In this document: piece after piece, positions 21,764 through 51,301 of the stretch
Numbering within the stretch: position 1 is the stretch's first letter
Layout: each line of letters starts with the position of its first letter
From: Candidatus Bruticola sp.
GTDB lineage: Bacteria > Vulcanimicrobiota > Xenobia > Xenobiales > Xenobiaceae
Length of the DNA: 64,000 bases
NCBI GenBank assembly: GCA_051874735.1
Contig: JBJEGD010000026.1
Coordinates: forward strand, 1-64,000
Reading direction: 5' to 3'
The notes under the pieces: generated by a model
The model's input: only the letters and a program-made list of their open reading frames with translations
What the model was told of the DNA's origin: nothing
The model's database searches: none
Position numbers and translations under genes: made by a program

Positions 21764-24436
21764 TTGGAGTTTGTATTTATAGCTATTTTATCGCTAATAA
21801 TACTGCTATTGCCGTTAATTTTATCGATAATCGCAGTTGCTTCATGTAATTCTGTAAAAAATCGTCTGCAAAAATTGGAATCGGCATTTAGCAGACTGCA
21901 GGTTGGTTATGTAGAGAAGCAGTTACCCCCTTCTCCTCCATCTGCTCCTCTAAATAATAGAACTGAGTTGTTTTCAGGTTCAGCTCCATTATCATCTTTG
22001 AAAGCAGATAAAATTGAAACGGTTGACTTACCTGCTGCAGAAAAAAAATGTGTGCCGGAAGCTGAAATATCTAATTCGTTGGTGCACCAAACTCCTTTTG
22101 AATCCGCTCTCAGTTCAGAAGATAAAGCTCAAAAACCCTGGCGTCCTTCAAAATCTGGTCCTGCTGAGTCGCCTAAGAAAGTGGAGCAGAATGTAGCTCC
22201 TAGTGGACATAATGCGGCAAATAGTCTGGAACAGTTCTTTTTGGGCAATCTTTTTAGTAAACTTGGGGCTTTAGCTTTTCTTGTTTTTATAATCCTTTTC
22301 ATAAAGTGGATTTCACCTTACTTGGCTCTGACAACCGCTATGAAAGTTGGAGCTGTTTATGCCTTAAGTTCAGTCTTTATGGCTGTAGGCGCTTTTTCTT
22401 TGTCAAAGCCCAACCTGCGAGGTCTAGCTGAAACTCTCCTGGGGGTCGGTTTGGCTGCAGCTATTATGATAACTTACGCTGGCAGTGTCTATTTTGAATT
22501 GTGGGACAATTATATTAGTCTGCTGCTAGCCTCGCTTATCTTGTTGGGTACTTATGTTTTAGCTTATTTCGTGCAGCGTCGCTCTGTTGTATGTTTAGGT
22601 TTATTAGCTGGTTATGCGAATCTAGTCTTTATCCAAGCTTCAATTGATAGTACTGTAGTTTTCGATGTTTACGTAGTAATTTTAACTATATTCTGCCTCA
22701 TAGGCGTTATGCGCAGCCGCAACTGGGGAGCTCTTTTCAGCACTCATATAGTTGTAAGCTGGATTTTTATTTTAGTACGCTACCTGTTCCGCAGCGAATT
22801 AGATTTTTCAACTGTTGCTTTAGCAGCTATGTGGCTGGTTGTTCTGGTTTATGACTTATTTCGCACAGAGGAAGGATATACTCCCAGACAACTTAAGTTC
22901 AGTGTCTCCCTAAATCATTTTATAATGATTTTAGGATCTATAATTATTTACAAAAATGGCGAATTTTTGGCCACTTCCGTTTTGGCTGCCGTTATTCTTT
23001 GGGCTTTGGCCAAACTACATTGGGATAACAAGAAAATTTTGGCCGTAACTTTTGTTAATAGCAGCCTGTTAATATTGGCTTTATCTACCTATGGTTTTGA
23101 GGAGCCTATTTCCAGAGTTGTATTTTTATCAGCTCTCAGTTTGGTTTCTATTGCCGTTGCCATGTACAAAACAGAAAATTCTTTTCTTAGAGATAATCTC
23201 TGCTTTTGGAACAGCTGTTGCAATACAATGGCTTTTGTAGTGCTACTCTTTGCCGATTTAGGGGGAAGAATAGACTTTTTCTTTACTCCTGATCGAAATT
23301 TATGGTGGCGCTTAGGGACCTTGTCTTCTCTTATTTCTGTCTCATCTTGGTTGCTTAGCTATCTGCTAATTAAATACAGCTCTTGGGCTTCTGAAAAAGA
23401 AAAACTTGAGAAGTTTAGCCTTTGGGCAGCCATAACTTTAATTTACATTTACTGCGGGCGAGAGATATCCGAGCTGTTAGAGCATTTATTTGCTAAAGGC
23501 TTAAAAGGATTTACTTTTAGTTGGTTTAGTACGGTAACTGTATGTTCAATCTATGCTCTGCATATTGCAGTGCAAGCTAAAGCTTTAAAAAGCAAGTCAT
23601 TTGTTGTTGGTTATAACATCGCTCTGAGCATGTCAGTTTTTGCATTGCTTATTTATGCTCTAGTTGGAGCTCCATTAAACAGATTACACGATTTTATGCC
23701 TATAGTTAATTTGGGTTTTTTAGCCCATGCAATGACTATTTTGGCTTTAGCTGCTGTTTTTATAATTTCTAAAGTCTCCATTTACGCTGTAGGGGCTATC
23801 CTAGTAGGATGGGCTTTAGTCCATTTTGAGGGGGGCAATATTGTCAGTATTTGCGGTATAGACTCAATAACTTCAGTATTATGGATGCTTTACGCTGCTG
23901 CTGTTCTCTTTGTTGGTATAGGTTTTAAGAAAAGTTATGTTACTAAATGCGGTATATTTATAGTTTGTGTTACTCTGATACGCGTTGTCACTTACGATAT
24001 TATCAGTCTGTCTATGGGCTATAAATTGCTGCTCTTCTTTGTTTTAGGCTGTGCTTTCTTAATTGTGTCTTATTATTATTCTAAGAGAACATTTGTTTCT
24101 AAGGAAGAAAAAAATGTTATTTCTCCCCTTATAGAGACCGATTCAGCTTCTGATTTTGCTATGTCGCAGCCTATTGAAAGCGGCGTTAAAGAAAGTTGGG
24201 CTGCTGCAGATACGCAGCTCTTGGAAGATAAAGAAGTTGACAGCTCAATAACAACTTCTCCTTTCAGCGACAGGTGGCTGCAAGAAGATAATTCAGTTGG
24301 CCTCTGTGCCGATGAAAAAAATGAGTCGAAATCTGCGGCTGAAATTATCCATGTGGCTGAAGCGAAAAATGAGCTTCCCAAAGAAGGCGAGGCTTGTATG
24401 CCTGCTGCTTGTAAAGCTAGCTGGCATACAGATTAA
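21764..24436 (+). CDS. DUF2339-family polytopic membrane protein
   Basis: N-terminal TM helix, coiled coil and Pro-rich linker, then LEQFFLGNLFSKLG followed by many TM helices. Confidence 0.75.
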   Translation: MEFVFIAILSLIILLLPLILSIIAVASCNSVKNRLQKLESAFSRLQVGYVEKQLPPSPPSAPLNNRTELFSGSAPLSSLKADKIETVDLPAAEKKCVPEAEISNSLVHQTPFESALSSEDKAQKPWRPSKSGPAESPKKVEQNVAPSGHNAANSLEQFFLGNLFSKLGALAFLVFIILFIKWISPYLALTTAMKVGAVYALSSVFMAVGAFSLSKPNLRGLAETLLGVGLAAAIMITYAGSVYFELWDNYISLLLASLILLGTYVLAYFVQRRSVVCLGLLAGYANLVFIQASIDSTVVFDVYVVILTIFCLIGVMRSRNWGALFSTHIVVSWIFILVRYLFRSELDFSTVALAAMWLVVLVYDLFRTEEGYTPRQLKFSVSLNHFIMILGSIIIYKNGEFLATSVLAAVILWALAKLHWDNKKILAVTFVNSSLLILALSTYGFEEPISRVVFLSALSLVSIAVAMYKTENSFLRDNLCFWNSCCNTMAFVVLLFADLGGRIDFFFTPDRNLWWRLGTLSSLISVSSWLLSYLLIKYSSWASEKEKLEKFSLWAAITLIYIYCGREISELLEHLFAKGLKGFTFSWFSTVTVCSIYALHIAVQAKALKSKSFVVGYNIALSMSVFALLIYALVGAPLNRLHDFMPIVNLGFLAHAMTILALAAVFIISKVSIYAVGAILVGWALVHFEGGNIVSICGIDSITSVLWMLYAAAVLFVGIGFKKSYVTKCGIFIVCVTLIRVVTYDIISLSMGYKLLLFFVLGCAFLIVSYYYSKRTFVSKEEKNVISPLIETDSASDFAMSQPIESGVKESWAAADTQLLEDKEVDSSITTSPFSDRWLQEDNSVGLCADEKNESKSAAEIIHVAEAKNELPKEGEACMPAACKASWHTD

Positions 24437-24496
24437 TATTAAAATATTAAGGTACTAAAATAGGTTGATTTATTTTAATATTCTATTCATATAGAC

Positions 24497-24538
24497 AAAA
24501 AACGGTTGGATTTATAAAAAATTCCAACCGTTTTTTTT
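24497..24538 (+). terminator. intrinsic terminator
   Basis: aaaaaacggttgga/tccaaccgtttttttt. Confidence 0.85.
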
Positions 24539-24600
24539 GTTTACACCCCCTTCTATTCCCATTTTTTTGACTATATTTTTATTAATTATTAATTTTTTTT

Positions 24601-24652
24601 GGCAAAGTTGTAACAAATTTGTCCATAAATAACAGCTCAAATTATGTACTAT
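24601..24652 (+). promoter_or_regulatory. conserved upstream block, copy 1 (before nuclease 1)
   Basis: Aligns without gaps to 27591-27642 (about 36/52 identical by my count) and ends in a -10-like TACTAT. Confidence 0.55.
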
Positions 24653-24927
24653 TGTGACAGTTACTAACTAGAGTTGATTATATTTGCAGCCTAAACTGGA
24701 GAGGCTATTTTTCTAATATTGGCCGTTTCTCTACATGTTGCAGTGTACAACCGCTAAAAAGTAACACATAGCTGAGGTTTCTTGTAGCAAAATATTATAA
24801 AATTTTTAGTTTGCTTCCGGAAATTTTTGCGTTTTTTATGCAGTTATCTTTTTGCGTTATATTGTTATGAATTGGACAAAAAAAGTTATCTGCAGCAACC
24901 TAGGCAAAGGGATAGGAATTGCTAAAT

Positions 24928-26052
24928 ATGAGTATCGGAAGTATTTCTGGTAGTTCTTTATATACTAACACACAAGTTTCAGAGAGTTCTATTAAGCGCC
25001 CTGAAGGTTTTCAAGGAACAGGCAAAGACGTCTACGTGCACGATGACGACGCTCAGCTTACTAAAGAGCAACAGTTCGCTAAAGCTGGTCGTCTATTTCA
25101 GAGCGTGAACGATGAAACTTTCCAGGCTGCAGGTCGTAAAAAGCGCGGCAAGCATGGAGGTCCCAAAGGTCCTAACGGTCCTAATACTTCTAAAGGTCCT
25201 TCTGAAGTTACAACTGATGGAGTCAGCATGTTTGAAGGCCGCAACGGATACGATACTAAGTTCTTAGGGGTAGAGCTTCCTCTTCCCGGTATTGGTAGCT
25301 CCATTCAAGATAAAGTGGCTATGCGCACTGATAAACCCGGCGAGTGCGAGCTTACCTATACAAACTACTCTGTAGTTATGAATAAAGATCGCAAACAGTG
25401 CTTCTATGCTATCTGCAATATCGACGGTAATACTCATAAAAATGTGAAGCGTTCCGGTAGCTGGACTCTTGACGGCCGTATTCCTCGTGAATATCAGTTA
25501 GGCAACGAAGCTTATGCTGATAACAATATCGACAGAGGTCATATGGTTCGGCGTTTAGATCCTTGCTGGGGTAAGAATGCTGAATTAGCTAGTCGCGATA
25601 CTTTTAGCTACTGCAACTCTTCATTGCAACATAGCGGTCTCAATCAGAAAGAGTGGCTTCAGCTCGAAGATCATGTGCTAAATTCTGCTAAGGGCCAAAA
25701 AATGACTGTAATTACTGGTCCTATCTTCTCTGAGAGCGATCCTTATTTTGATAACCATGGCAAAATGGAAGAGCCGGCTCAGATTCCTATGAAGTTCTTT
25801 AAAACTGTCGTTTGGAATGAGGGTGGAGAACTCAAGAGCGCTTCCTTTATTCTCTCTCAGGAGGATATTATCGGCGGCGATGGTTCTTTAGGTGCTAAGG
25901 GCGGTTTCGATCCTGATCGCTTCGAAGTTTATCAGGTTCCTCAAAAGGAAGTGGAGCGCCTTACCGATCTGCATTTCGGCAATATCGGCGATATCACCGA
26001 GCAGCCTATGCGTTTGACTGCTGACAACGATTACTCTCCCAAGTTGGCATAA
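24928..26052 (+). CDS. DNA/RNA non-specific endonuclease (NucA/EndG beta-beta-alpha-metal family), copy 1
   Basis: DRGHMVRRLDP catalytic motif, LNQKEWLQLE metal-binding helix and ITGPIF. ATG at 24928 is preferred over TTG at 24919. Confidence 0.93.
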   Translation: MSIGSISGSSLYTNTQVSESSIKRPEGFQGTGKDVYVHDDDAQLTKEQQFAKAGRLFQSVNDETFQAAGRKKRGKHGGPKGPNGPNTSKGPSEVTTDGVSMFEGRNGYDTKFLGVELPLPGIGSSIQDKVAMRTDKPGECELTYTNYSVVMNKDRKQCFYAICNIDGNTHKNVKRSGSWTLDGRIPREYQLGNEAYADNNIDRGHMVRRLDPCWGKNAELASRDTFSYCNSSLQHSGLNQKEWLQLEDHVLNSAKGQKMTVITGPIFSESDPYFDNHGKMEEPAQIPMKFFKTVVWNEGGELKSASFILSQEDIIGGDGSLGAKGGFDPDRFEVYQVPQKEVERLTDLHFGNIGDITEQPMRLTADNDYSPKLA

Positions 26053-26091
26053 ACTAATCAACAAAGTTAAGTCCTGCCGATGAGGCGTCTC

Positions 26092-26152
26092 AATAGTGTT
26101 AGGGTGTTCTGAGAAAATGTATACTGTCTCAGAGCACCCTTACAGTATTTTT
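26092..26152 (+). terminator. long hairpin terminator after nuclease 1
   Basis: 23-bp imperfect inverted repeat aatagtgttagggtgttctgaga/tctcagagcacccttacagtatt followed by T residues. Confidence 0.7.
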
Positions 26153-26239
26153 AGAAAAATATTTTTTATTTGGTTCTATCTGGGACTGCGCAGTTATAAA
26201 AGTTTTGGGCGAGGGGGAGAAATCAGAGGTTAATTAGTT

Positions 26240-27316
26240 GTGTGTATAGGATCTATTTCTGGAAGTTCTTTGTATGCTAGTAAGCAAGTAGCCGATAATT
26301 TTGCCTGCTGTTCTGAAAAATCTGAGGTAGCTAGTCAAGATACCTTTGTTAAAGGTAACAACGCACAGTTTGTTAAAGAGCAAAATTTTGCTAAAGCTGG
26401 TCGTTTTTTCCAGAGTTGCATTTCCCATCATACTGATTCTGCTTCTGAAGCTATTGCTATTCAAGGTGATAAAGTTTCTATGTTCGAAGGCCGGAACGGT
26501 TACGATAAGAACTTTTTAGGCACAGAGCTGCCTTTGCCTGAATTGGGTAGTTCTATAAAAGATCAAGTTGCTATGCGAACTGATAAACCTGGCGAATGCG
26601 AACTTACCTATACTAATTACTCTGTAGTAATGAATAAAGATCGCAAACAATGCTTCTATGCTATTTGCAATATAGATGGTAATAATCTGCATAATATTAA
26701 GCGTGCCGGTAATTGGACTTTAGATGGGCGTATTCCCCGCGAATATCAGTTAGGTGACGAAGCTTATAAGCGCAATAATATTGATAAAGGCCACATGGTT
26801 CGCCGTCTCGATCCCTGTTGGGGTAAAAATGCTGAATTAGCTAGCCGCGACACTTTCAGCTACTGCAATGCTTCTTTGCAACATGCAGGATTAAACCAAG
26901 ATGAATGGTTAGCTTTAGAAGATCATGTGCTCGCTTCTGCCAAGGGTCAAAAGATGAGCGTAATCACCGGTCCTATTTTTTCTGAGAGTGATCCTTGGTT
27001 CGACAATAACGGCAAAATGGAAGAACCAGCTCAGATACCTATGAAGTTTTTTAAAACTGTAGTTTGGGCTGATGAAAAAAGTGGAGCCCTTAAGAGTGCC
27101 TCTTTTATCCTTTCCCAGGAAGATATTATCAAGGAAGATGATACTATAACTACAAAAGGCGGTTTTGATCCCGATCGTTTTGGGGTCTATCAAGTCCCCC
27201 AAAAGGAAGTAGAACGCCTTACCGATCTGCATTTCGGCAATATTGGTGATATTACTGAGCAGCCTATGCGTTTGACTGCTGCCAACAATTACGCGCCTTT
27301 AGGTTTAGAACGGTAA
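26240..27316 (+). CDS. DNA/RNA non-specific endonuclease, copy 2
   Basis: DKGHMVRRLDP and LNQDEWLALE; GTG start with GAGG RBS. Confidence 0.93.
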   Translation: MCIGSISGSSLYASKQVADNFACCSEKSEVASQDTFVKGNNAQFVKEQNFAKAGRFFQSCISHHTDSASEAIAIQGDKVSMFEGRNGYDKNFLGTELPLPELGSSIKDQVAMRTDKPGECELTYTNYSVVMNKDRKQCFYAICNIDGNNLHNIKRAGNWTLDGRIPREYQLGDEAYKRNNIDKGHMVRRLDPCWGKNAELASRDTFSYCNASLQHAGLNQDEWLALEDHVLASAKGQKMSVITGPIFSESDPWFDNNGKMEEPAQIPMKFFKTVVWADEKSGALKSASFILSQEDIIKEDDTITTKGGFDPDRFGVYQVPQKEVERLTDLHFGNIGDITEQPMRLTAANNYAPLGLER

Positions 27317-27336
27317 ATATTTTTTTGATTATTCTG

Positions 27337-27386
27337 AAGCCCTAGATTTATGCTAGTTATTATTAGCAAAATCTAGGGCTTTTTTT
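27337..27386 (+). terminator. intrinsic terminator after nuclease 2
   Basis: aagccctagattt...aaatctagggctt followed by a T run. Confidence 0.85.
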
Positions 27387-27590
27387 ATTAGTTTCAACGA
27401 TTTAAGTACGATATAGAAGGCGTTTAATTGTGTACATTAAATGTTTAGTTTAAAATTATTTCAGCTTTACAGGTTTTGTTCCAGCAGCGGTAAATTCTCG
27501 TTATAGTTGTAATTGGTTACCAATTTAAGAACTTCAGTGTTGAAAGATGTTTAATTGATTCACTAAAAAAATAGTTTTTAAACATTTTTT

Positions 27591-27642
27591 GGTGAAGTTG
27601 TTACATTTTTGTGCACAAACAATCTTTAAAGTTCTGTAGTAT
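27591..27642 (+). promoter_or_regulatory. conserved upstream block, copy 2 (before nuclease 3)
   Basis: Homologous to 24601-24652 and ends in TAGTAT. Confidence 0.55.
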
Positions 27643-27684
27643 CTAATTGGTAAACAAGGTCTGGGGTGGGGAGAAATCTAGGGG

Positions 27685-28791
27685 ATGTCAATAATGAGTA
27701 TCGGAAGTATTTCTGGTAATTCTTTATATATTAATAATCAAGTTCCTGAAAGTTCTATTCGCCGTCCTGAGGGCTTCCAGGGTACAGGTAAAGATGTTTT
27801 TGTACACGACGACAATATACAATTTGCCAAAGAGCAAGACTTCGCTAAGGCTGGTCGTCTTTTCCAGAGCTGTCAGCGTGGCAATCAAAACCAGAAGCTT
27901 GAAGAAAACCAGCAAGTTAATGTCATGTCCGCTTCCGGAAATGATATCGAAAGTATAAGCATGTTTGAAGGCCGCAATGGCTACGATAAAAGCTTTTTAG
28001 GTGTAGAGCTGCCCTTGCCTGAATTGGGAAGCTCTATAAAAGATAAAGTTGCCATGCGTACCGATAAGCCTGGAGAGTGTGAGCTTACTTACACTAATTA
28101 CTCTGTGGTAATGAATAAAGAGCGCAAGCAGTGCTTCTATGCCGTTTGCAATATCGACGGTCAGAGTCACCAAGATGTAAAGCGCGATGGCAGCTGGACT
28201 ATCGATGGAAGAATTCCCCGTGAATATCAGTTGGGCAACGAAGCTTACGGTGGTAACAATATTGATAAGGGCCATATGGTTCGCCGCTTAGATCCCTGTT
28301 GGGGTGATGATCCCCTGTTGGCCAGCCGCGATACTTTCAGTTACTGCAATGCAACTTTGCAGCATAGTGCTTTGAATCAGAAAGAATGGTTAGAGCTGGA
28401 AAACCATGTGCTTGACAGCGCTACTGGAGCTAATCAGAAGCTGACTGTAATTACTGGTCCTATTTTCTCTGATGATGATCCTAAATTCGATAACAAGGGT
28501 CGAATGAAGGAAGCTACTCAGATCCCTATGAAATTCTTCAAAACTGTTGTTTGGAACGATGGCGGCGAGCTTAAGAGTGCTTCTTTCGTTCTCTCTCAGG
28601 AAGATATAATTAATGGTGATCGTTCTCTCTTCAAGAGCAAGGGGGTAGATCCCGGCCGTTTCAGCGTTTATCAGGTGCCTCAGAAGCAGTTAGAAGAAAT
28701 GACCGATCTGCATTTTGGTAATATTGGTGACATCACTGAGAAGCCTATGCGCCTTACTGCTGCCAACAATTATGCTCCTAAGCTGAGCTAG
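27685..28791 (+). CDS. DNA/RNA non-specific endonuclease, copy 3
   Basis: DKGHMVRRLDP and LNQKEWLELE. Confidence 0.93.
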   Translation: MSIMSIGSISGNSLYINNQVPESSIRRPEGFQGTGKDVFVHDDNIQFAKEQDFAKAGRLFQSCQRGNQNQKLEENQQVNVMSASGNDIESISMFEGRNGYDKSFLGVELPLPELGSSIKDKVAMRTDKPGECELTYTNYSVVMNKERKQCFYAVCNIDGQSHQDVKRDGSWTIDGRIPREYQLGNEAYGGNNIDKGHMVRRLDPCWGDDPLLASRDTFSYCNATLQHSALNQKEWLELENHVLDSATGANQKLTVITGPIFSDDDPKFDNKGRMKEATQIPMKFFKTVVWNDGGELKSASFVLSQEDIINGDRSLFKSKGVDPGRFSVYQVPQKQLEEMTDLHFGNIGDITEKPMRLTAANNYAPKLS

Positions 28792-28814
28792 TTTATTAAC
28801 ATTTTCGCTTATTG

Positions 28815-28853
28815 AAAGGGCTGCTCAATTCTATCCAGTTGGGCAGCTTTTTT
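28815..28853 (+). terminator. intrinsic terminator after nuclease 3
   Basis: aaagggctgctcaatt/agttgggcagcttttt. Confidence 0.8.
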
Positions 28854-28916
28854 GCTTAAGAGATTATTTTTCTTAATCATAATTGAGCAAACTAAGAGCA
28901 TACGGAGTACTTTGTT

Positions 28917-30011
28917 ATGGAAATAGGTGGCCTTTCTGGCAGTTTTTTTAATATACATACTCAAGTTTCAGATAATAATTTACAACGCTTGGGCAAGACT
29001 CAAGATAGTTGTCCCGATACTTTTAAACATGATGAAAACTCTCAGTTTGCGAAAGATAATCAGTTTTACAAAACTGGCCGTCTTTTTCAGAACTGCAGTT
29101 ACAAACCTTCGTCAGCTCTATCTACTTCAGCTTCAGTGGCTATTCAAGGCGAACCTGTGAGTATGTTTGAAGGTCGCAACGGTTACGATAAAAACTTTTT
29201 GGGTGTAGAATTGCCTTTGCCTGGATTGGGAAGCTCTATAAAAGACAAAGTCGCTATGCGTACCGATAAGCCTGGAGAGTGTGAGCTTACTTATACTAAC
29301 TATTCGGTAGTTATGAATAAAGAACGCAAACAGTGCTTTTATGCTATTTGCAATATAGACGGCCGAGCCTCTAGAGCCGTAAAGCGTGAGGGCACTTGGA
29401 CTCTTGATGGACGTATTCCCAGAAAATATCAATTAGGCGATGAAGCTTACGGAGGTAACAATATTGATCGCGGTCATATGGTGCGCCGTTTGGATCCTTG
29501 CTGGGGAAGTAATGCTAAATTAGCAGGAGAAGATACTTTTAGTTATTGCAATTCTGCACTGCAACACGGCGGCCTAAATAAAAAAGAGTGGCTGCGTCTA
29601 GAAGATCATGTATTGAACTCGGCCCGTGGCAGCGGTCAAAAAATAACCGTAATTACTGGACCTATTTTTGCAGCTGACGATCCCAAATTTAATAATAAGG
29701 GAGCTATGAAGGAAGAAGTACAAATTCCGCTGCAGTTTTTTAAAACCGTTATCTGGAACGAGAAAGGTTCTTTGAAGAGCGCTTCTTTTATTCTCTCCCA
29801 AAAAGACATTATAGAAGGAGACAGCTCCTTATTTAAAGCCAAAAAGAATAAAGGGAAAGGTTTCGATCCCGGTGAATTTAAGGTCTACCAAGTGCCTCAA
29901 AAAGAAGTAGAGCGCCTTACCGATCTGCATTTCGGCAATATTGGCGATATTACTGAGAAGACTATGCTCCTTATGGCTGATAACAATTTTGCTCCTCACG
30001 GACTTAGTTAA
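28917..30011 (+). CDS. DNA/RNA non-specific endonuclease, copy 4
   Basis: DRGHMVRRLDP and LNKKEWLRLE; GGAG RBS. Confidence 0.93.
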   Translation: MEIGGLSGSFFNIHTQVSDNNLQRLGKTQDSCPDTFKHDENSQFAKDNQFYKTGRLFQNCSYKPSSALSTSASVAIQGEPVSMFEGRNGYDKNFLGVELPLPGLGSSIKDKVAMRTDKPGECELTYTNYSVVMNKERKQCFYAICNIDGRASRAVKREGTWTLDGRIPRKYQLGDEAYGGNNIDRGHMVRRLDPCWGSNAKLAGEDTFSYCNSALQHGGLNKKEWLRLEDHVLNSARGSGQKITVITGPIFAADDPKFNNKGAMKEEVQIPLQFFKTVIWNEKGSLKSASFILSQKDIIEGDSSLFKAKKNKGKGFDPGEFKVYQVPQKEVERLTDLHFGNIGDITEKTMLLMADNNFAPHGLS

Positions 30012-30039
30012 GGGCATAAATTTTTTATTATGAGTTAAA

Positions 30040-30085
30040 CCAAAGCTGCGACTTAACAGCCTGGAGTCGCAGCTTTGGGGTTTTT
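30040..30085 (+). terminator. intrinsic terminator after nuclease 4
   Basis: ccaaagctgcgact/agtcgcagctttgg followed by ggttttt. Confidence 0.85.
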
Positions 30086-30194
30086 AAATAGGTAAGAAGG
30101 GAAGAACTGTCCACAATAGAAGCTAGGGCGGCGTAATTTTTTTTAGGCCGGGTTTTGTTTTGTTGGAAGCCCGCCCATACCTAGGAGTGTTTTC

Positions 30195-30665
30195 ATGACC
30201 GATCCTGAAGCTGTAAATCCTGAAGAAGAGTCTTTAGAGGCGCCGGAATATCTTAACAACTTGATGGATGAGCTCATTGTCTATGCTAAGTACCACGATG
30301 AGCATATGGAAGCTGAGTGGATTCCCGAAGAGAACGTTTTCCGTGTCTATCAAGACGATCAGCCTGAGGTTGATGTTTTTATGGTAGACATAGACGATTC
30401 TATGTACCATGAAGCTGAAGCTGTAGTAGTAGAAGCTGAGATAGGCGAGTACAGCGAAGACTTAGATCCGGCAGAGTTGTTGCGCTTCTGCGATCAAAAT
30501 TTAATTTACAGTCGCCTGATGATCAGCAAAGGTGATGGCTGCGAGTATGTTATTCTGCAGGCAGCTTGTCCGGTCAGTCAGTTAAGCGCCGCTCAGTTAG
30601 ATTGTATGATTCGAGAAGTTTCAGTATATTCTGGAGAACTCAGCGAAGAAGACGACGGCGAGTAA
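30195..30665 (+). CDS. small acidic protein, possible YbjN/CesT (type III chaperone-like) fold
   Basis: 156 aa and very D/E rich. Helix-strands-helix-strands pattern ending in an amphipathic helix (LSAAQLDCMIREV). AGGAG RBS. The fold is inferred. Confidence 0.5.
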   Translation: MTDPEAVNPEEESLEAPEYLNNLMDELIVYAKYHDEHMEAEWIPEENVFRVYQDDQPEVDVFMVDIDDSMYHEAEAVVVEAEIGEYSEDLDPAELLRFCDQNLIYSRLMISKGDGCEYVILQAACPVSQLSAAQLDCMIREVSVYSGELSEEDDGE

Positions 30666-30668
30666 ATT

Positions 30669-31964
30669 TTGAAAGTATTTAGAGATCCTGTACACGAAGA
30701 TATTTTTATCCCTCTAGAGTTAGTCGATCTTATAGACACAGCTCAAATGCAGCGGCTAAGGGGAATAAAGCAGTTAGGTACAGCTTCTCTCGTTTATCCA
30801 GGAGCAGTTCACACCCGATTTGAGCACAGTTTGGGCACTTGTCATCTGGCTATCCGTCTTTTAAGTATATTGGAAGAGTTCGGTACCAAGGTGAGTAAGG
30901 CTGAAAAACTGGCGGTGAGTGCGGCTGCTCTTTTGCATGATATAGGTCATATACCCTTTGGTCACACGGTGGAAGACGAGAGGAGAGTTTTCAGTCGTCA
31001 CGATTCTATAGAGCGTTTTGAAGCATTTTTTAATAAACGTACTGAATTAGGTAAGGCACTCCGCAAACTTAATATAGGTGAGCAAGTACAGAACATTCTT
31101 TACGGAACGGCTGAAAAAGCTTGGCTTAGTGAACTGATTAGCGGCGTATTTTGTGCTGATCTTTTAGATTATTTGGCTCGTGACGCCTTTTTTTGCGGGC
31201 TTTCTCAAAAATATGACAAGCGAATTTTGCGCAGTTTGCGTTCAGGCTGTGGTCATCTCTACTTAGACTGTCAGAAGAATGGAGTAGTCAGGGAAGATCT
31301 CGTCTCTGAAGTTATCAATCTTTTACGTTTACGTTATTTTTTAACTGAGCGCGTTTTCTTTCATCATACTAAGACAGCCTCAGGGGCGATGATTTCTAGA
31401 ATTATAGAGCGAGCTCTGGAATTGGGGTTGGAGCTGAAAGATATTCTACCTTTAGGAGATGAGCGTCTTTTAGCTTTTATTGAATGGCGTTTTGGCAGTG
31501 ACCAGCTTATTGCTTCCATAATTAAGGCTCTCCAGGCGCGCAAAATTTATAAGCGTGCTTATGTGTTAACCAGACGCATTGGAACTGAGAAGGAGGCCGC
31601 TTTAATAGAGCAGTTTCACCATAACGCCACTTGGCGGCGTCAAGCCGAAGATGAACTGATTGGCGATTTGGGCTTGCAAGCAGGGGAGCTGATTATTTAC
31701 TGCCCTTCAGCGAAAATGCAGCTAAAAGAGGCAGAAGTCTTGGTTAAAATAGATGAGGAAGAGCCCCGCTCCTTAGCTTCCCTTAATTTGCCAGAGGTTA
31801 GCGTGCTGCGCGACAAACACCGCAATTTATGGCGTTTTTATGTGTTTGTTTCTCAAAAACGTCAATACAAGCTCAGGCAGATATCTTCAGCCTGTGAGCG
31901 TTATTTTGGTTTAACAAATCATCTGCCGACTTTGCAGAGTGCTCAGCTTTATATGAGCTTCTGA
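30669..31964 (+). CDS. HD-domain phosphohydrolase, SAMHD1/dNTP triphosphohydrolase-like
   Basis: RDPVH, QRLRGIKQLG, YPGAVHTRFEHSLG, LLHDIGHIPFGH and ADLLDYLARD motifs. Confidence 0.9.
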   Translation: MKVFRDPVHEDIFIPLELVDLIDTAQMQRLRGIKQLGTASLVYPGAVHTRFEHSLGTCHLAIRLLSILEEFGTKVSKAEKLAVSAAALLHDIGHIPFGHTVEDERRVFSRHDSIERFEAFFNKRTELGKALRKLNIGEQVQNILYGTAEKAWLSELISGVFCADLLDYLARDAFFCGLSQKYDKRILRSLRSGCGHLYLDCQKNGVVREDLVSEVINLLRLRYFLTERVFFHHTKTASGAMISRIIERALELGLELKDILPLGDERLLAFIEWRFGSDQLIASIIKALQARKIYKRAYVLTRRIGTEKEAALIEQFHHNATWRRQAEDELIGDLGLQAGELIIYCPSAKMQLKEAEVLVKIDEEEPRSLASLNLPEVSVLRDKHRNLWRFYVFVSQKRQYKLRQISSACERYFGLTNHLPTLQSAQLYMSF

Positions 31965-32050
31965 TATAACTTATACATTTAGTTTTTTAGCACAGTGGCA
32001 TTTCAGACTTGTTTTTAGAAAAAAAAACTATATTTTTTTTCTAAAAGACC

Positions 32051-32079
32051 TTGCGTAAACTTAGCTAAGATGTTATACT
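32051..32079 (+). promoter_or_regulatory. sigma70-type promoter of tRNA cluster
   Basis: TTGCGT-17 bp-TATACT with extended -10 TG, followed by a GC-rich discriminator about 20 nt before the first tRNA. Confidence 0.8.
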
Positions 32080-32098
32080 GGCGGAGCCAGAAGGGCCT

Positions 32099-32174
32099 GG
32101 GCCCATAGCTCAGCGGTTAGAGCAGTTGGCTCATAACTAATTGGTCCCTGGTTCGAATCCAGGTGGGCCCACCA
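32099..32174 (+). tRNA. tRNA with CAT anticodon, probably Ile2 (lysidine-modified) rather than Met
   Basis: GGGCCCA/TGGGCCC acceptor stem, ctCATaa loop, GTTCGAATC T-arm and CCA end. Confidence 0.92.
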
Positions 32175-32210
32175 AGAGTCTCTGGTTTTTTGTGAGTGAA
32201 AAGTGTACAT

Positions 32211-32287
32211 GGCCCGGTGGTCTAGCGGTTTAGGACGCTGGCCTTTCAAGCCGGAGATCACGGGTTCGATTCCCGTCCGGGCTACCA
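32211..32287 (+). tRNA. tRNA-Glu(TTC)
   Basis: GGCCCGG acceptor, ctggc-ctTTCaa-gccgg anticodon arm, GTTCGATTC and CCA. Confidence 0.95.
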
Positions 32288-32380
32288 CTAAAAATGCTGT
32301 CCTCCATAGGGGAGGCGGTTATATATAATGAGAGGCTTATTTTGCCGAACAGCGTTTTGCAATGGGCTTCTCTTTTTTTT

Positions 32381-32457
32381 GGACGAGTAGCTCAGTTGGT
32401 TAGAGCACCTGCCTTACAAGCAGGGGGTCGGCGGTTCGAGTCCGTTCTCGTCCACCA
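32381..32457 (+). tRNA. tRNA-Val(TAC)
   Basis: GGACGAG/CTCGTCC acceptor, cctgc-ctTACaa-gcagg anticodon arm, GTTCGAGTC and CCA. Confidence 0.95.
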
Positions 32458-32466
32458 CAAAACATC

Positions 32467-32501
32467 AAGATCTTAATCCTTTAGGGTTGGGTCTTTTTTT
32501 T
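32467..32501 (+). terminator. terminator of tRNA operon
   Basis: aagatcttaatcct/agggttgggtctt followed by a T run. Confidence 0.7.
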
Positions 32502-32655
32502 ATGTTTATGTGACATAACTTTTTTTTCTTTAGTTATTGTCTATGAATATATAGGTTTATGGCAGTAATCTAGGTAAAAAGAGGAGCTGGAAGGGGCCAG
32601 GATAAAGAATTTTTCTTTTACTAAGCCCCTCAAGCAAGGAAGGTTATATTTAAAA

Positions 32656-33459
32656 GTGTTTACTTGTGAAAGCCAAGCGGATATAGGCATTTTCGGTGGT
32701 TCGGGTTTTTATAGTTTAGATTCTAATGCTGAAACTATAGTTATCAATACTCCTTATGGTCCAACTAGCGATAAAATTTCCTTAATTAACATTCATGGCA
32801 AACGGGTAGCTTTTTTGCCTCGTCATGGTTCCGATCATCATTTATCTCCCGCTAAAATACCTTATAGGGCCAATATTTGGGCTATGAAGCAATTGGGAGT
32901 TAAGGCTATTATAGGTCCGTGTGCTGTGGGCAGCCTGCGTTTGGAAATAAAGCCAGGCAGTTTTGTTGTTTGTGATCAGTTTGTTGATAGGACTTGGGGA
33001 CGTCAGGATACTTTTTTCGAAGGTCCAGAAGTAAAACACATTGCTGGCGCTGAGCCTTATTGCCCTTGTTTGCGTCCTTTTGTGGTTAATTGTGCTAAAG
33101 ATTTGGGTATAGAGGTCCATCCTAAGGGCACTATGGTGGTTATTCAAGGTCCCCGTTTTTCCACGAAAGCTGAAAGCGAGTGGTTTAAAAAGATGGGCTG
33201 GGATGTTGTCAATATGACGGGCTATCCCGAGTGTTATTTAGCTCGAGAGATGGAAATATGCTATGTAAACGTCTCTTTAGTCACCGATTACGATGCCGGT
33301 ATCGAAGGAGTGGCGGAAGCTGTTACTGGTGATGAGGTCTGCCGAGTTTTTGCTGAAAATAATCAAAAGTTAAAGAAGCTCATTTACAAGATTGTTGAAA
33401 GAATCGATTTGAATCGGGATTGTATTTGTCGCCACGCTTTAGCTGGAGACACTATGTAA
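32656..33459 (+). CDS. mtnP: S-methyl-5'-thioadenosine phosphorylase
   Basis: IGIFGGSG, FLPRHG, YRANIWA, GPRFSTKAES, VNMT and VTDYD motifs. Confidence 0.93.
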   Translation: MFTCESQADIGIFGGSGFYSLDSNAETIVINTPYGPTSDKISLINIHGKRVAFLPRHGSDHHLSPAKIPYRANIWAMKQLGVKAIIGPCAVGSLRLEIKPGSFVVCDQFVDRTWGRQDTFFEGPEVKHIAGAEPYCPCLRPFVVNCAKDLGIEVHPKGTMVVIQGPRFSTKAESEWFKKMGWDVVNMTGYPECYLAREMEICYVNVSLVTDYDAGIEGVAEAVTGDEVCRVFAENNQKLKKLIYKIVERIDLNRDCICRHALAGDTM

Positions 33460-49536: not shown

Positions 49537-50838
49537 TTACTTGCCCATTAAGAATTCGATATTCTCTTGAGGATCAATAACGCCCTTGCCCTGCTCGAAT
49601 TTGCTTACGCCTTCGAGAGCATCAGCGTTCTTCATCATGATCTCTTTAACCTGATCGGGGCTGATGTTGGGTTTTACTTGATGCATGAGCACGTCGACGC
49701 CAGCGGCAAAAGGAGTAGCCATGGAAGTACCAGACATACTTACATAGCCGGTGCCCCTATGAGAAGCAGCGGTAATGTTTACACCGGGGGCCAAAATGTC
49801 GGGCTTCTCGAGCTTATCGATACGGCTGGGACCACGGCTGGAGAAGTAAGCCAACTGGTCGTCGGAGCGATCAACAGTACCTCTGTCGTCGAGAGCGCCT
49901 ACGGTAATGGCATGAGGGGCGTTGCCGGGGGAGCCGATGGTACCGGAACTGGGACCTTCGTTACCAGCAGCTACTACACAGCTAATACCAGCAGCGTGAG
50001 CAGCTTCAACAGCTTGTACTACGGGGTCATCTTTGTAGCTCTGGGAAACATAACCGCCCAAAGACATACTGATAACATCGATGTTTAACTTCTCTTTGTT
50101 TTCAACGGCCCATTGTACGCCTTTGATAACGTTGGAAAGAGAACCTGAACCATTGCGATCCAAAACTTTCACGCCGACAATGCTGGCTTCAGGAGCAACA
50201 CCAGTGTATTTTCCTTCGGAGCTCTTGCCGCTACCCGCGCAGATACCGGTGCAGTGAGTGCCGTGACCCTGATCATCGTAGGGCTCAGTGCGACCGTTGA
50301 CCATATCTTTGAAACCAACAATACGACCTTCAAAGTCGGGGTGTTGAGCTATACCGGTGTCGATAACGCATACAGTTACGCCTTTACCGGTGATGCCTTG
50401 GTCGTGAAGTTTATCTACGCCTAAAGTTACGTTGGCTGTATCCATTAAGGGACGGAAAGTATTTTCGAGATCTTCCAGCTCGTTGCGGGGAATGCCAATC
50501 TGGGCATCCATGAATACTCGGTTACCTTCTTCGTTGGCCTTAGCTAAGTTAGGGAGAAGAGTACCATCAGCGGAAGGATTGACGGTCACGGCGAAGCCAT
50601 TGACCAAAGGAAGATCTGCAGTCACTTTATTCTCGGGATTCTGGGCGAGAATAGAAGCGCGCATTTCTTCGAGCTTAGCTTTATCACTGTTGGTGATAAT
50701 TAAGTTTACAGGGCCGTTGTTGGAAGAAGCAATAAAGGTCTCTTCGGGCTGCTTCTCAGCGGGAGCCTGGGCGGGAGCGGACTTCGCACCAGTGTAAATC
50801 TGCGAAGTAGGAGCGCTCATAGTTGGACGAATTTCCAT
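49537..50838 (-). CDS. S8 subtilisin-family serine peptidase (AprX-like) with propeptide
   Basis: Catalytic triad motifs IDTG, HGTHCTG and GTSMATP, plus AAGN. ATG at 50838 follows AAAGGAG. Confidence 0.93.
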   Translation of the reverse strand: MEIRPTMSAPTSQIYTGAKSAPAQAPAEKQPEETFIASSNNGPVNLIITNSDKAKLEEMRASILAQNPENKVTADLPLVNGFAVTVNPSADGTLLPNLAKANEEGNRVFMDAQIGIPRNELEDLENTFRPLMDTANVTLGVDKLHDQGITGKGVTVCVIDTGIAQHPDFEGRIVGFKDMVNGRTEPYDDQGHGTHCTGICAGSGKSSEGKYTGVAPEASIVGVKVLDRNGSGSLSNVIKGVQWAVENKEKLNIDVISMSLGGYVSQSYKDDPVVQAVEAAHAAGISCVVAAGNEGPSSGTIGSPGNAPHAITVGALDDRGTVDRSDDQLAYFSSRGPSRIDKLEKPDILAPGVNITAASHRGTGYVSMSGTSMATPFAAGVDVLMHQVKPNISPDQVKEIMMKNADALEGVSKFEQGKGVIDPQENIEFLMGK

Positions 50839-51301
50839 TAGTAAAACTCCTTTCAATGGAGGGAGAACTAATGAGATTATTTCTCAATAGCATTTCATAC
50901 AAAACAACTTCGTTATTATATTACCATTATATCACTAAGCAATGTTATTTAAAATGTGAACATTAAGACAATAAAGTTCTAATTGTGTATGCAATTTATA
51001 TTGTTCTGCATTATTTTATTTGATAAGTGTGCTGATGAGCTATCTTAATGAAGTGTATAGTTGATAATAAAATACAATTCGCTTTAATACTGTTTTTAAG
51101 TTTTTGATTGAGCAGATGAAGCTATTGCGCATTTGTATAAATTATTAACTTGCGAGGGCTAATTAAATGCTTGTCAGCTGCTTATTATCTAGTTCGTAAA
51201 AAACTGCGGCGTAAGTTGTTTTTTTAGTCTTTTTTCATTGTGATAAGCTAAGCTGAATGGGGAAGGAAAGCAAGCTGCGGTTGTACAATGCTCAGCGAAT
51301 T

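Follow-up and report, generated by a model that had tools for sequence, protein, structure and literature searches.

The nuclease array and its genomic context

The window analysed here comprises the initial 64,000 nucleotides of contig C26 in a 42-contig genome assembly of 2.47 Mb (G000). That genome is an estimated 92% complete, and its closest named proteins in a protein database search belong to 'Candidatus Bruticola sp.' and 'bacterium UBP9'. Bruticola, an uncultured gut bacterium, is placed in the class Xenobia of the phylum Vulcanimicrobiota (Eremiobacterota). The locus of interest comprises four tandem nuclease genes followed by genes for a small acidic protein and an HD phosphohydrolase (Table 1). 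An initial annotation had proposed that the four nucleases are exported by a leader-dependent route other than Sec, with the acidic protein as their chaperone or inhibitor.

Table 1. Positions of the nuclease array and other features in the 64-kb window
Feature	Position	Strand	Description
Nuclease 1	24919..26052	+	377 aa from TTG; probable start ATG 24928; PF01223
Nuclease 2	26240..27316	+	358 aa, GTG start, MCIGSISGSS...; PF01223
Nuclease 3	27685..28791	+	368 aa; probable start ATG 27694; PF01223
Nuclease 4	28917..30011	+	364 aa, MEIGGLSGS...; PF01223
Terminator-like hairpin	30040..30085	+	Perfect 14-nt arms (30040-30078) then GTTTTT; between nuclease array and acidic gene
Acidic protein	30195..30665	+	156 aa, pI 4.05; predicted type III secretion class-I chaperone / YbjN ('TY-Chap') fold; own AGGAG ribosome-binding site
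HD phosphohydrolase, EF1143/SAMHD1 type	30669..31964	+	431 aa, TTG start; HD + HD_assoc_2
tRNA-Met, tRNA-Glu and tRNA-Val genes	32099..32457	+	Close the unit
S-methyl-5'-thioadenosine / purine-nucleoside phosphorylase family gene	32656..33459	+	Nucleoside salvage; downstream neighbour
S8 subtilase paralogue	49537..50856	-	Without Sec signal; N-terminus ...MEIRPTMSAPTSQ...

The description of the four genes as NucA/EndG-family nucleases with intact motifs was confirmed. Each product matches PF01223 (Endonuclease_NS) at E values of approximately 1e-37 to 1e-40, with 128–138 bits against a cut-off of 23; nucleases 2–4 are 68–75% identical to nuclease 1, and the sequences NID[RK]GHMVRR and LNxxEWLxLE are unchanged in all four copies. 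G196/H197, N231 and E239 are invariant in an alignment of 50 homologues, and the D-[RK]-G-H histidine, the metal-binding Asn and the Glu that follows presumably play the roles that we assign to them from the Serratia enzyme.

In a model of nuclease 3 obtained with AlphaFold2, the catalytic domain (residues 90–368) is confident, with predicted local distance difference test (pLDDT) values mostly >90, and the best Foldseek matches of this model are Serratia nuclease, EndoG, EXOG and CPS-6 (E of about 2e-12). The catalytic part as modelled has the beta-beta-alpha-metal nuclease fold. These relatives are distant by sequence: a profile search against solved structures gave EndoG at 7e-10, Serratia nuclease at 7e-5 and NucA at 1.4e-4, and a single-sequence search of the Protein Data Bank (PDB) with nuclease 3 gave no match at E ≤ 1e-10, so that the profile search was needed. 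Some homologues are named 'endonuclease G', and a eukaryotic EndoG origin was considered and dropped, since the solved EndoG reaches just E 7e-10 and the homologues carry the same bacterial leader.

A terminator had been ascribed to each nuclease gene. Inverted repeats do lie 3' of all four genes (26092–26149, 27337–27381, 28850–28882 and 30040–30078), but a strict terminator scan accepts at the array only the site of the fourth gene (30060–30079), and the total from that scan is not above that for shuffled sequences (6 found, 7.0 expected). A promoter scan was likewise not above shuffles (13 found, 16.2 expected), and an Rfam scan of positions 24000–32600 returned the three tRNAs and nothing else. 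An 890-amino-acid DUF2339 membrane protein is encoded directly upstream of the array (21764–24436, plus strand).

Distribution of the array was assessed in relatives, among them 19 genomes of the same family (f1; the window's genome and 18 others) and 22 other relatives, and in a sample of 201 genomes of the phylum. Among the nine other genomes of the genus, six carry an array of six nucleases immediately 5' of the acidic gene; there are four copies in G008, two matches in G005 and one match in G002. Each nuclease of the window is 81–88% identical to its best match in the six-copy array of G001, compared with 68–75% between the paralogues, and the duplications therefore predate the species. 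In the phylum sample the nuclease subfamily was found in 18 of 18 genomes of family f1 and in all 16 of family f3, with four weaker matches (35–43% identity) elsewhere; as judged by these searches, it is confined to two families, both within the order of this bacterium. The two families may form one clade, in which case one gain may account for their common pattern. From sequence, the array is an old, conserved tandem family of beta-beta-alpha-metal nucleases with predicted activity on both DNA and RNA, irrespective of the sugar.

A conserved leader without a Sec signal

All four nucleases have a hydrophilic N-terminal leader of approximately 100 amino acids, which in nuclease 1 contains a basic Gly/Pro-rich linker and precedes the PF01223 catalytic domain. 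The leader, whose sequence is conserved across homologues, runs from M-x-I-G-S-I-S through RPEGFQG..KDVFVxDD..F-x-x-AGRLF into a variable linker; in the sister family f3 its start degenerates to M-L-x-x-L-S/N-S. Because of the conserved MxIGSIS start, the internal ATG codons given in Table 1 are likely to be the true starts of nucleases 1 and 3.

The lack of a hydrophobic signal peptide, noted at the outset for the four nucleases, holds for each of them and extends across the subfamily. The best 12-residue mean on the Kyte-Doolittle (KD) scale within their first 110 amino acids is 0.76–1.19, and none has a hydrophobic N-terminal segment. Given that the open reading frames (ORFs) begin at the first ATG, GTG or TTG after the preceding stop codon, no longer N-terminus with such a start can be hidden. 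Among 120 database homologues, whose leaders have a median length of 80 residues, none shows a hydrophobic signal there by the criterion of KD ≥ 2.2 over 10 residues. One of 14 orthologues from relatives (L039) has a 12-residue window at 2.24, which lies inside a long upstream extension whose start is doubtful. Residues 1–44 and 62–87 of the nuclease 3 model have pLDDT values of <50, and the leader is predicted to be disordered, without the hydrophobic core of a Sec or Tat signal. By a crude rule, 243 of the 1872 genes of the genome have Sec-like N-termini, so that signal-less hydrolases are exceptions rather than the rule.

In G013 (L037:1094-4252) and G010 (L041:1376-4540), a protein of approximately 1050 amino acids with a polar, signal-less N-terminus adjoins an unlinked nuclease gene; it may be another leader-bearing member of the set.

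A flagellar-type export apparatus without detectable flagellin

A search of the genome for type III, type VI and type VII secretion genes, which the initial annotation had called for, revealed one machine independent of Sec, a flagellar-type type III secretion system (T3SS). No match was found in this genome for the type VI protein TssC, WXG100, a contractile sheath or VirB4. The FlhA match has an E value of 3e-252. By Pfam matches, contig C42 (C42:8600-30400) encodes FlgB, FlgC, FliE, FliF, FliG, FliH, FliI, FliJ, FliK, FliM and two FliN proteins; it also encodes a lytic transglycosylase, a short FlgE-like protein, FliO, FliP, FliR, FlhB and FlhA, and a 98-amino-acid ORF identified by position alone occupies the place of fliQ. 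Contig C26 contributes, at 82–88 kb (82600-87700), a FliK-like protein, FlgF, FlgG, a rod-binding protein and a sigma factor. As annotated from these matches, the genome holds a flagellar type III export apparatus with gate, ATPase complex, MS and C rings and rod genes. There is a single match to the MotA/ExbB/TolQ family, a frame of 239 amino acids.

Searches for Flagellin_N were negative for all 19 family genomes (the window's genome being 92% complete) and positive for 8 of the 22 other relatives. All eight flagellin-bearing relatives possess a second full-length FlhA, and no flagellin-less relative does. FlgI (P-ring) was not found in the window's genome. The flagellin-less cluster may be a distinct and old flagellar derivative without a filament.

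Four genes follow flhA (C42:27548-30378; L003:15549-18379), encoding an acidic 105-amino-acid protein, a helical 100-amino-acid protein and two Ser/Gln-rich proteins of 269 and 247 amino acids. The C-terminal pattern IY.QM...W..L.DTQ..IF.I.Q is common to both Ser/Gln-rich proteins, the 100-amino-acid protein and a 95-amino-acid paralogue (C26:114705-114992). The Ser/Gln-rich proteins start with MVAPIGINTNAY and MVISESRLSNP, and these N-termini resemble the starts of the nuclease leaders.

The flagellar-type cluster keeps its rod proteins, and no outer-membrane ring or secretin was seen within it; two secretins are encoded elsewhere in the genome, on contigs C34 and C27. Together with the conserved C-terminal tail of the nucleases (FGNIGDITE..RLTA.N.Y.P.GL), these features would suit export by a different path, whether a type I (ABC/TolC) system reading the tail, vesicles or lysis. 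We consider such a path very unlikely, on a search that covered no type I system, given that the tail is partly ordered in the nuclease 3 model (pLDDT of 85 and 70 for its last two blocks) and that the feature common to the nucleases and the proteases described below is N-terminal.

A stand-alone protein corresponding to the cytoplasmic C-terminal domain of FlhA (491 amino acids) is encoded at C22:122510-123985 (L005:14511-15986). In relatives with large genomes the number of FHIPEP matches rises to as many as 19, the majority being stand-alone domains; one of these, in G035, lies approximately 4 kb from a nuclease gene and an HD gene.

Other hydrolases without Sec signals

The nucleases are not the only hydrolases of this genome that lack a Sec signal. 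All five S8 subtilases identified in an unbiased BLAST count are without a hydrophobic N-terminus; three of them were confirmed by Pfam, and two of these three have a fervidolysin-type prodomain. The fifth paralogue is the one inside the window (Table 1). The same is true of all three HExxH metalloproteases of 486–494 amino acids with a downstream HE(S/A)F motif (Atlas lead, Peptidase_M36/M4). Two of the signal-less subtilases, each with a prodomain, lie in tandem at C26:200335-203498, and the signal-less HExxH proteins comprise a tandem pair and a single copy (C31:123170-126357 and C13:125972-127441). The subtilase pair and the HExxH proteins have N-termini of the MI/ML-x-S-I-S type, and several of the proteases start with MISNIGS, MINSIGS, MSIGISS, MIGSIS, MLNSIS or MIGSIY. 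For one of the subtilases, 0 of 120 homologues had a hydrophobic N-terminus and most begin with MI(S/x)x(I/V). With a matrix trained on the subtilases, the two Ser/Gln-rich proteins encoded after flhA rank 14 of 1872 in strict register and 9 of 1872 with an offset of 0–2.

Because the same polar, signal-less N-termini occur on five subtilases and three HExxH proteins, the nucleases look like part of a wider, leader-tagged digestive set. The set of signal-less subtilases and metalloproteases that share this kind of N-terminal motif is new in this analysis. One match to the motif, in an amylase, was set aside, since this protein has a hydrophobic signal ahead of it.

Purine synthesis in the family

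No PurM match above the cut-off was obtained in the 19 family genomes; such a match is present in 13 of 14 control genomes and in 12 of the 22 other relatives. For PyrB, the only match in the window's genome was below threshold. These results suggest purine auxotrophy, and perhaps pyrimidine auxotrophy, in family f1, a group of gut Xenobia with small genomes. Multi-copy nuclease arrays are found mostly in genera without PurM, with G029 as an exception, the related genomes not being independent samples. That PurM was not found in the 19 family genomes fits a scavenging of nucleic acids.

Properties of the acidic protein and the HD phosphohydrolase

The acidic protein contains 42 Asp and Glu residues and 6 Lys and Arg residues, and it matches no Pfam-A family (hmmscan, E ≤ 0.1), no NCBIfam family and no PADLOC family. 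A structure model built from an alignment of 24 sequences has a pLDDT of 86 and a predicted template modelling score (pTM) of 0.80, with the topology helix, four strands, helix, two strands and helix. When this model was compared with 48,161 chains by VIA-align, the top 20 matches (Z of 8.8–13.9) were all T3SS class-I chaperones (VecA, SycN/YscB, SycH, SchA, SpcU, SicP, Spa15, InvB, ExsC, SycT and SigE) or YbjN-like proteins (PA14_16140, 2plg, 3cxj, DR_1245 and AmyR), the next match having a Z of 6.4; Foldseek and Atlas agree with this fold. Sub-threshold profile matches among the 24 members were to CesT (PF05932) in two (best E of 0.0049) and to YbjN (PF10722) in one (E of 0.016), with none for the protein of the window. 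NuiA is absent among the families matched by any of the 24 members, so that by family the protein is no inhibitor of the NucA/NuiA type, and a search of the PDB with the family sequences gave one match at chance level (E of 0.076). By its modelled fold the acidic protein is a peptide-binding chaperone, with binding predicted. A complex prediction that combined the acidic protein, in two copies, with residues 1–110 of nuclease 3 gave a score of 0.05 and a mark of 0.32 without controls, and weighs neither way.

The HD protein matches PF01966 and PF19276, and it matches the solved dNTPase-type structures 2o6i/3irh/4lrl with an E value of 1e-30 over residues 2–253 and SAMHD1 with one of about 1e-22 over its first 100 residues. 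It falls below all NCBIfam dGTPase cut-offs (best, 33 bits against 152; antiphage_dGTPase, 21 bits against 400). A second HD paralogue, with 33% identity over 259 amino acids, is encoded at C34:62192-62929, and a similar, weaker second match is present in nearly all relatives.

A proposed explanation by export and the evidence against it

To account for these observations, we propose that the leader marks the enzymes for export by a Sec-independent route and that they act outside the cytoplasm; this part of the explanation is, in our judgment, somewhat favoured over its contrary. Nucleic acid digested there by the nucleases would serve a cell in whose genome the purine-synthesis marker PurM was not found. 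The route would be the flagellar-type type III apparatus, which we propose tentatively because it is the only Sec-independent machine detected, because no flagellin was found in the family, and because similar N-termini are encoded after flhA. Of the export proposal of the initial annotation, the signal-less subfamily, the conserved leader and the presence of a flagellar-type T3SS are now supported, and export itself and its route remain what we infer from them. To the explanation as a whole we assign a probability of approximately 0.45, which makes it the best of those considered.

Several observations weigh against it. Signals for T3SS export usually lack sequence conservation. In a tblastn search with the 100-amino-acid leaders, no protein of the genome other than the four nucleases scored below E 0.1, and leader profile searches of the genome gave at best weak matches to other proteins, none of them significant. 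The proteases were first noticed through such weak leader-profile matches (E of 0.06–3), so that their high ranks with the nuclease matrix are not independent; conversely, the subtilase-trained matrix in strict register ranks the nucleases only at 311–513 of 1872, and at 23–170 only if an offset of 0–2 residues is allowed. The N-terminal motif occurs 14 times in the genome against approximately 5 expected, and chance probably accounts for at least 4 of them. The statistics for a shared N-terminus are thus modest and partly circular. Given that FlhA is nearly universal, being present in 184 of the 201 phylum genomes (including the unpublished G177) and in all 41 relatives, even those without the nucleases, its co-occurrence with the nucleases does not discriminate.

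Outside the clade, the proteins closest to the nuclease domain also point away from export. They are long and signal-less, with 38–45% identity (P0263-P0305); of the 10 that were scanned, 7 contain a trypsin-like peptidase domain and one a TPR-S domain, and such fusion proteins look cytoplasmic. Some of the trypsin-nuclease fusions additionally carry Exo_endo_phos, Peptidase_C25 or TPR-S domains. The nucleases of the array might accordingly be imagined as regulated cytoplasmic effectors in phage defence or DNA turnover, silenced by their N-terminal extension or by an acidic inhibitor, with the dNTPase depleting nucleotides. Enzymes of this family are toxic in the cytoplasm and are paired with inhibitors elsewhere, the NucA/NuiA (2o3b) and EndoG/EndoGI (3ism) complexes being among the matches, and the HD protein has a weak PADLOC dGTPase match (E of 3e-8, residues 45–103 only). 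Such a role is quite improbable in the light of several other findings: no PADLOC family matches the nucleases or the acidic protein; the array occupies the same chromosomal place within the genus, with 81–88% identity between each nuclease and its best match in G001, unlike a variable defence island; the HD protein is universal in this group; and the same polar, signal-less N-termini occur on subtilases with a secretion-type prodomain.

Further counter-evidence concerns the partner of the acidic protein. As originally described, the acidic ORF ends 3 nt before the SAMHD1-like HD gene (stop at 30665, TTG at 30669), and a strong terminator with a perfect stem separates it from nuclease 4. The two genes are adjacent in all five genera of the family in which both were found. 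In G010, G011, G013, G016 and G018 (genera g2, g3 and g5) the pair is intact and the nucleases are on other contigs, and in G005, of the same genus as the window, the order is nuclease, DUF2339, acidic gene, HD gene and nuclease, with the pair unchanged. The acidic gene lies directly 3' of a nuclease array in genera g1 and g4 only; in g2, g3, g5 and family f3 the acidic gene and the nucleases are on separate contigs, and in the window's genome the acidic gene is outside the flagellar-type cluster. No other gene for a leader-bearing hydrolase has a small acidic neighbour. The acidic gene is therefore organised with the HD dNTPase gene and not with the nucleases, and the pair stands without nearby nucleases in three genera, an outcome that the initial annotation had named as refuting its proposal.

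The genomic evidence on the partner of the acidic protein thus points more to the HD protein than to the nucleases. One could suppose that the acidic protein serves the HD dNTPase as chaperone, regulator or assembly factor and that the nucleases were merely inserted and multiplied nearby in two genera. Its separate ribosome-binding site and the terminator before it would accord with such an arrangement, as would the frequency of YbjN/TY-Chap-fold proteins outside secretion systems, with DR_1245, AmyR and PA14_16140 among the structural matches. In the sister family f3, however, the acidic homologue is not beside the HD gene, and an ABC-type transporter gene is upstream of it in two annotated loci (L035 and L036, genus g9). 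An HD match was obtained in all 41 relatives, including six genomes of families f2 and f4 in which the acidic gene was not found, which indicates that the HD protein does not need the acidic protein; in G035 and G036 the HD gene lies 0.8 and 3.7 kb from a nuclease gene without an acidic gene in the interval. The phyletic range of the acidic family, which was found in the phylum sample in 16 of 18 genomes of f1 (the two misses being genomes 71–72% complete), in 16 of 16 of f3 and in none elsewhere, matches that of the nuclease subfamily and not that of the HD protein. We therefore regard this arrangement, taken as the explanation of the locus, as somewhat unlikely. That the acidic protein chaperones or inhibits the nucleases, as first suggested, is for its part doubtful: its chaperone-type fold and matching phyletic range speak for such a function, but the gene organisation contradicts it.

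The export explanation can be extended to a broader proposal, in which a flagellin-less type III apparatus would be the main secretion path for digestive enzymes in Xenobia. Its substrates would be nucleases, prodomain subtilases and thermolysin-like metalloproteases; instead of a Sec signal, these would bear a short N-terminal tag of conserved sequence, M-hydrophobic-x-x-hydrophobic-S-S, that leads into a polar and disordered stretch; and the acidic protein, as a single chaperone of the TY-Chap/CesT fold, would handle the leaders of the nucleases. In this full form the proposal is unlikely.

Comparison with known systems

Excerpts of a published study (PMC7688988) describe how secretion of protease and glucanase by the flagellin-less bacterium Lysobacter enzymogenes OH11 needs the flagellar T3SS genes fliI and flhB. 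As far as those excerpts go, the Xenobia resemble this strain in that no flagellin was found, flagellar export genes are kept and degradative enzymes are the substrates, here candidate ones. Secretion was measured in that strain, whereas in the present case the system is known from genes alone. The candidate substrates of the Xenobia further differ from those described for OH11 in having a recognisable N-terminal sequence in common and in including an array of nucleases, and the flagellin-less apparatus of the Xenobia is conserved across the whole order, beside a true flagellum in some members.

Campylobacter and Pectobacterium, which export nonflagellar proteins through the flagellum, are flagellated bacteria, and we know of neither a shared sequence motif nor a dedicated class-I-type chaperone in that export. 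Excerpts of three reports (PMC2764114, PMC5223770, PMC9144310) cover its substrates, which are proteins of the Cia/FlaC type in Campylobacter and bacteriocins in Pectobacterium. The proposed export of the nucleases is similar to what these excerpts describe, in that the signal is N-terminal and independent of Sec and the substrates are not parts of the flagellum.

With the Anabaena NucA/NuiA (2o3b, 1zm8) and Drosophila EndoG/EndoGI (3ism) pairs, the locus shares the nuclease superfamily and would share the logic of protecting the producer. Unlike NuiA, the acidic protein matches no Pfam family, that of NuiA included, and its predicted fold is that of T3SS chaperones and YbjN. It resembles the T3SS class-I chaperones (VecA, SycH, SycN-YscB, SpcU, SicP, Spa15, InvB, CesT) and the YbjN-type proteins (YbjN, AmyR, DR_1245, PA14_16140) in size, acidity and alpha-beta fold, and in the window its gene follows those of candidate substrates with disordered N-termini. 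It differs from them in that its gene is organised with the HD gene and in most genera is not next to the nucleases, and in that no injectisome was recognised in the window's genome. The HD protein is similar to the EF1143/SAMHD1 dNTP triphosphohydrolases in its HD domain and associated helical region, and differs in scoring below the NCBIfam dGTPase cut-offs, its substrate being predicted.

A search of the literature on Xenobia/Eremiobacterota, on their flagella and type III secretion, and on signal-less subtilisins with flagellar T3SS found no description of such a system. One article (PMC11484240) mentions Xenobia, and its main text, as far as it was available, holds no passage on flagella, secretion systems or nucleases.

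Implications for Xenobia

Non-specific nucleases and prodomain subtilases are textbook substrates of Sec. A whole lineage here makes nucleases and subtilases that lack Sec signals and have a shared N-terminal sequence instead, and it possesses a flagellar export machine with no detectable filament protein. It offers a concrete and testable case of the repurposing of a secretion pathway. If the enzymes were cytoplasmic after all, it would have to be explained anew how the cell protects itself from a conserved set of four to six non-specific nucleases whose leaders are disordered.

If the broader proposal is true, this T3SS would be the first to combine a recognisable sequence tag with a housekeeping, nutritional role throughout an uncultured lineage. 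Should the tag and the route of the export explanation hold, they would supply a sequence rule with which to predict the exoproteome of a phylum that is uncultured and lives in gut and soil. They would also show, in a natural case, a flagellar apparatus on its way to becoming a pure secretion system, and would explain how purine-auxotrophic gut Xenobia feed on nucleic acids.

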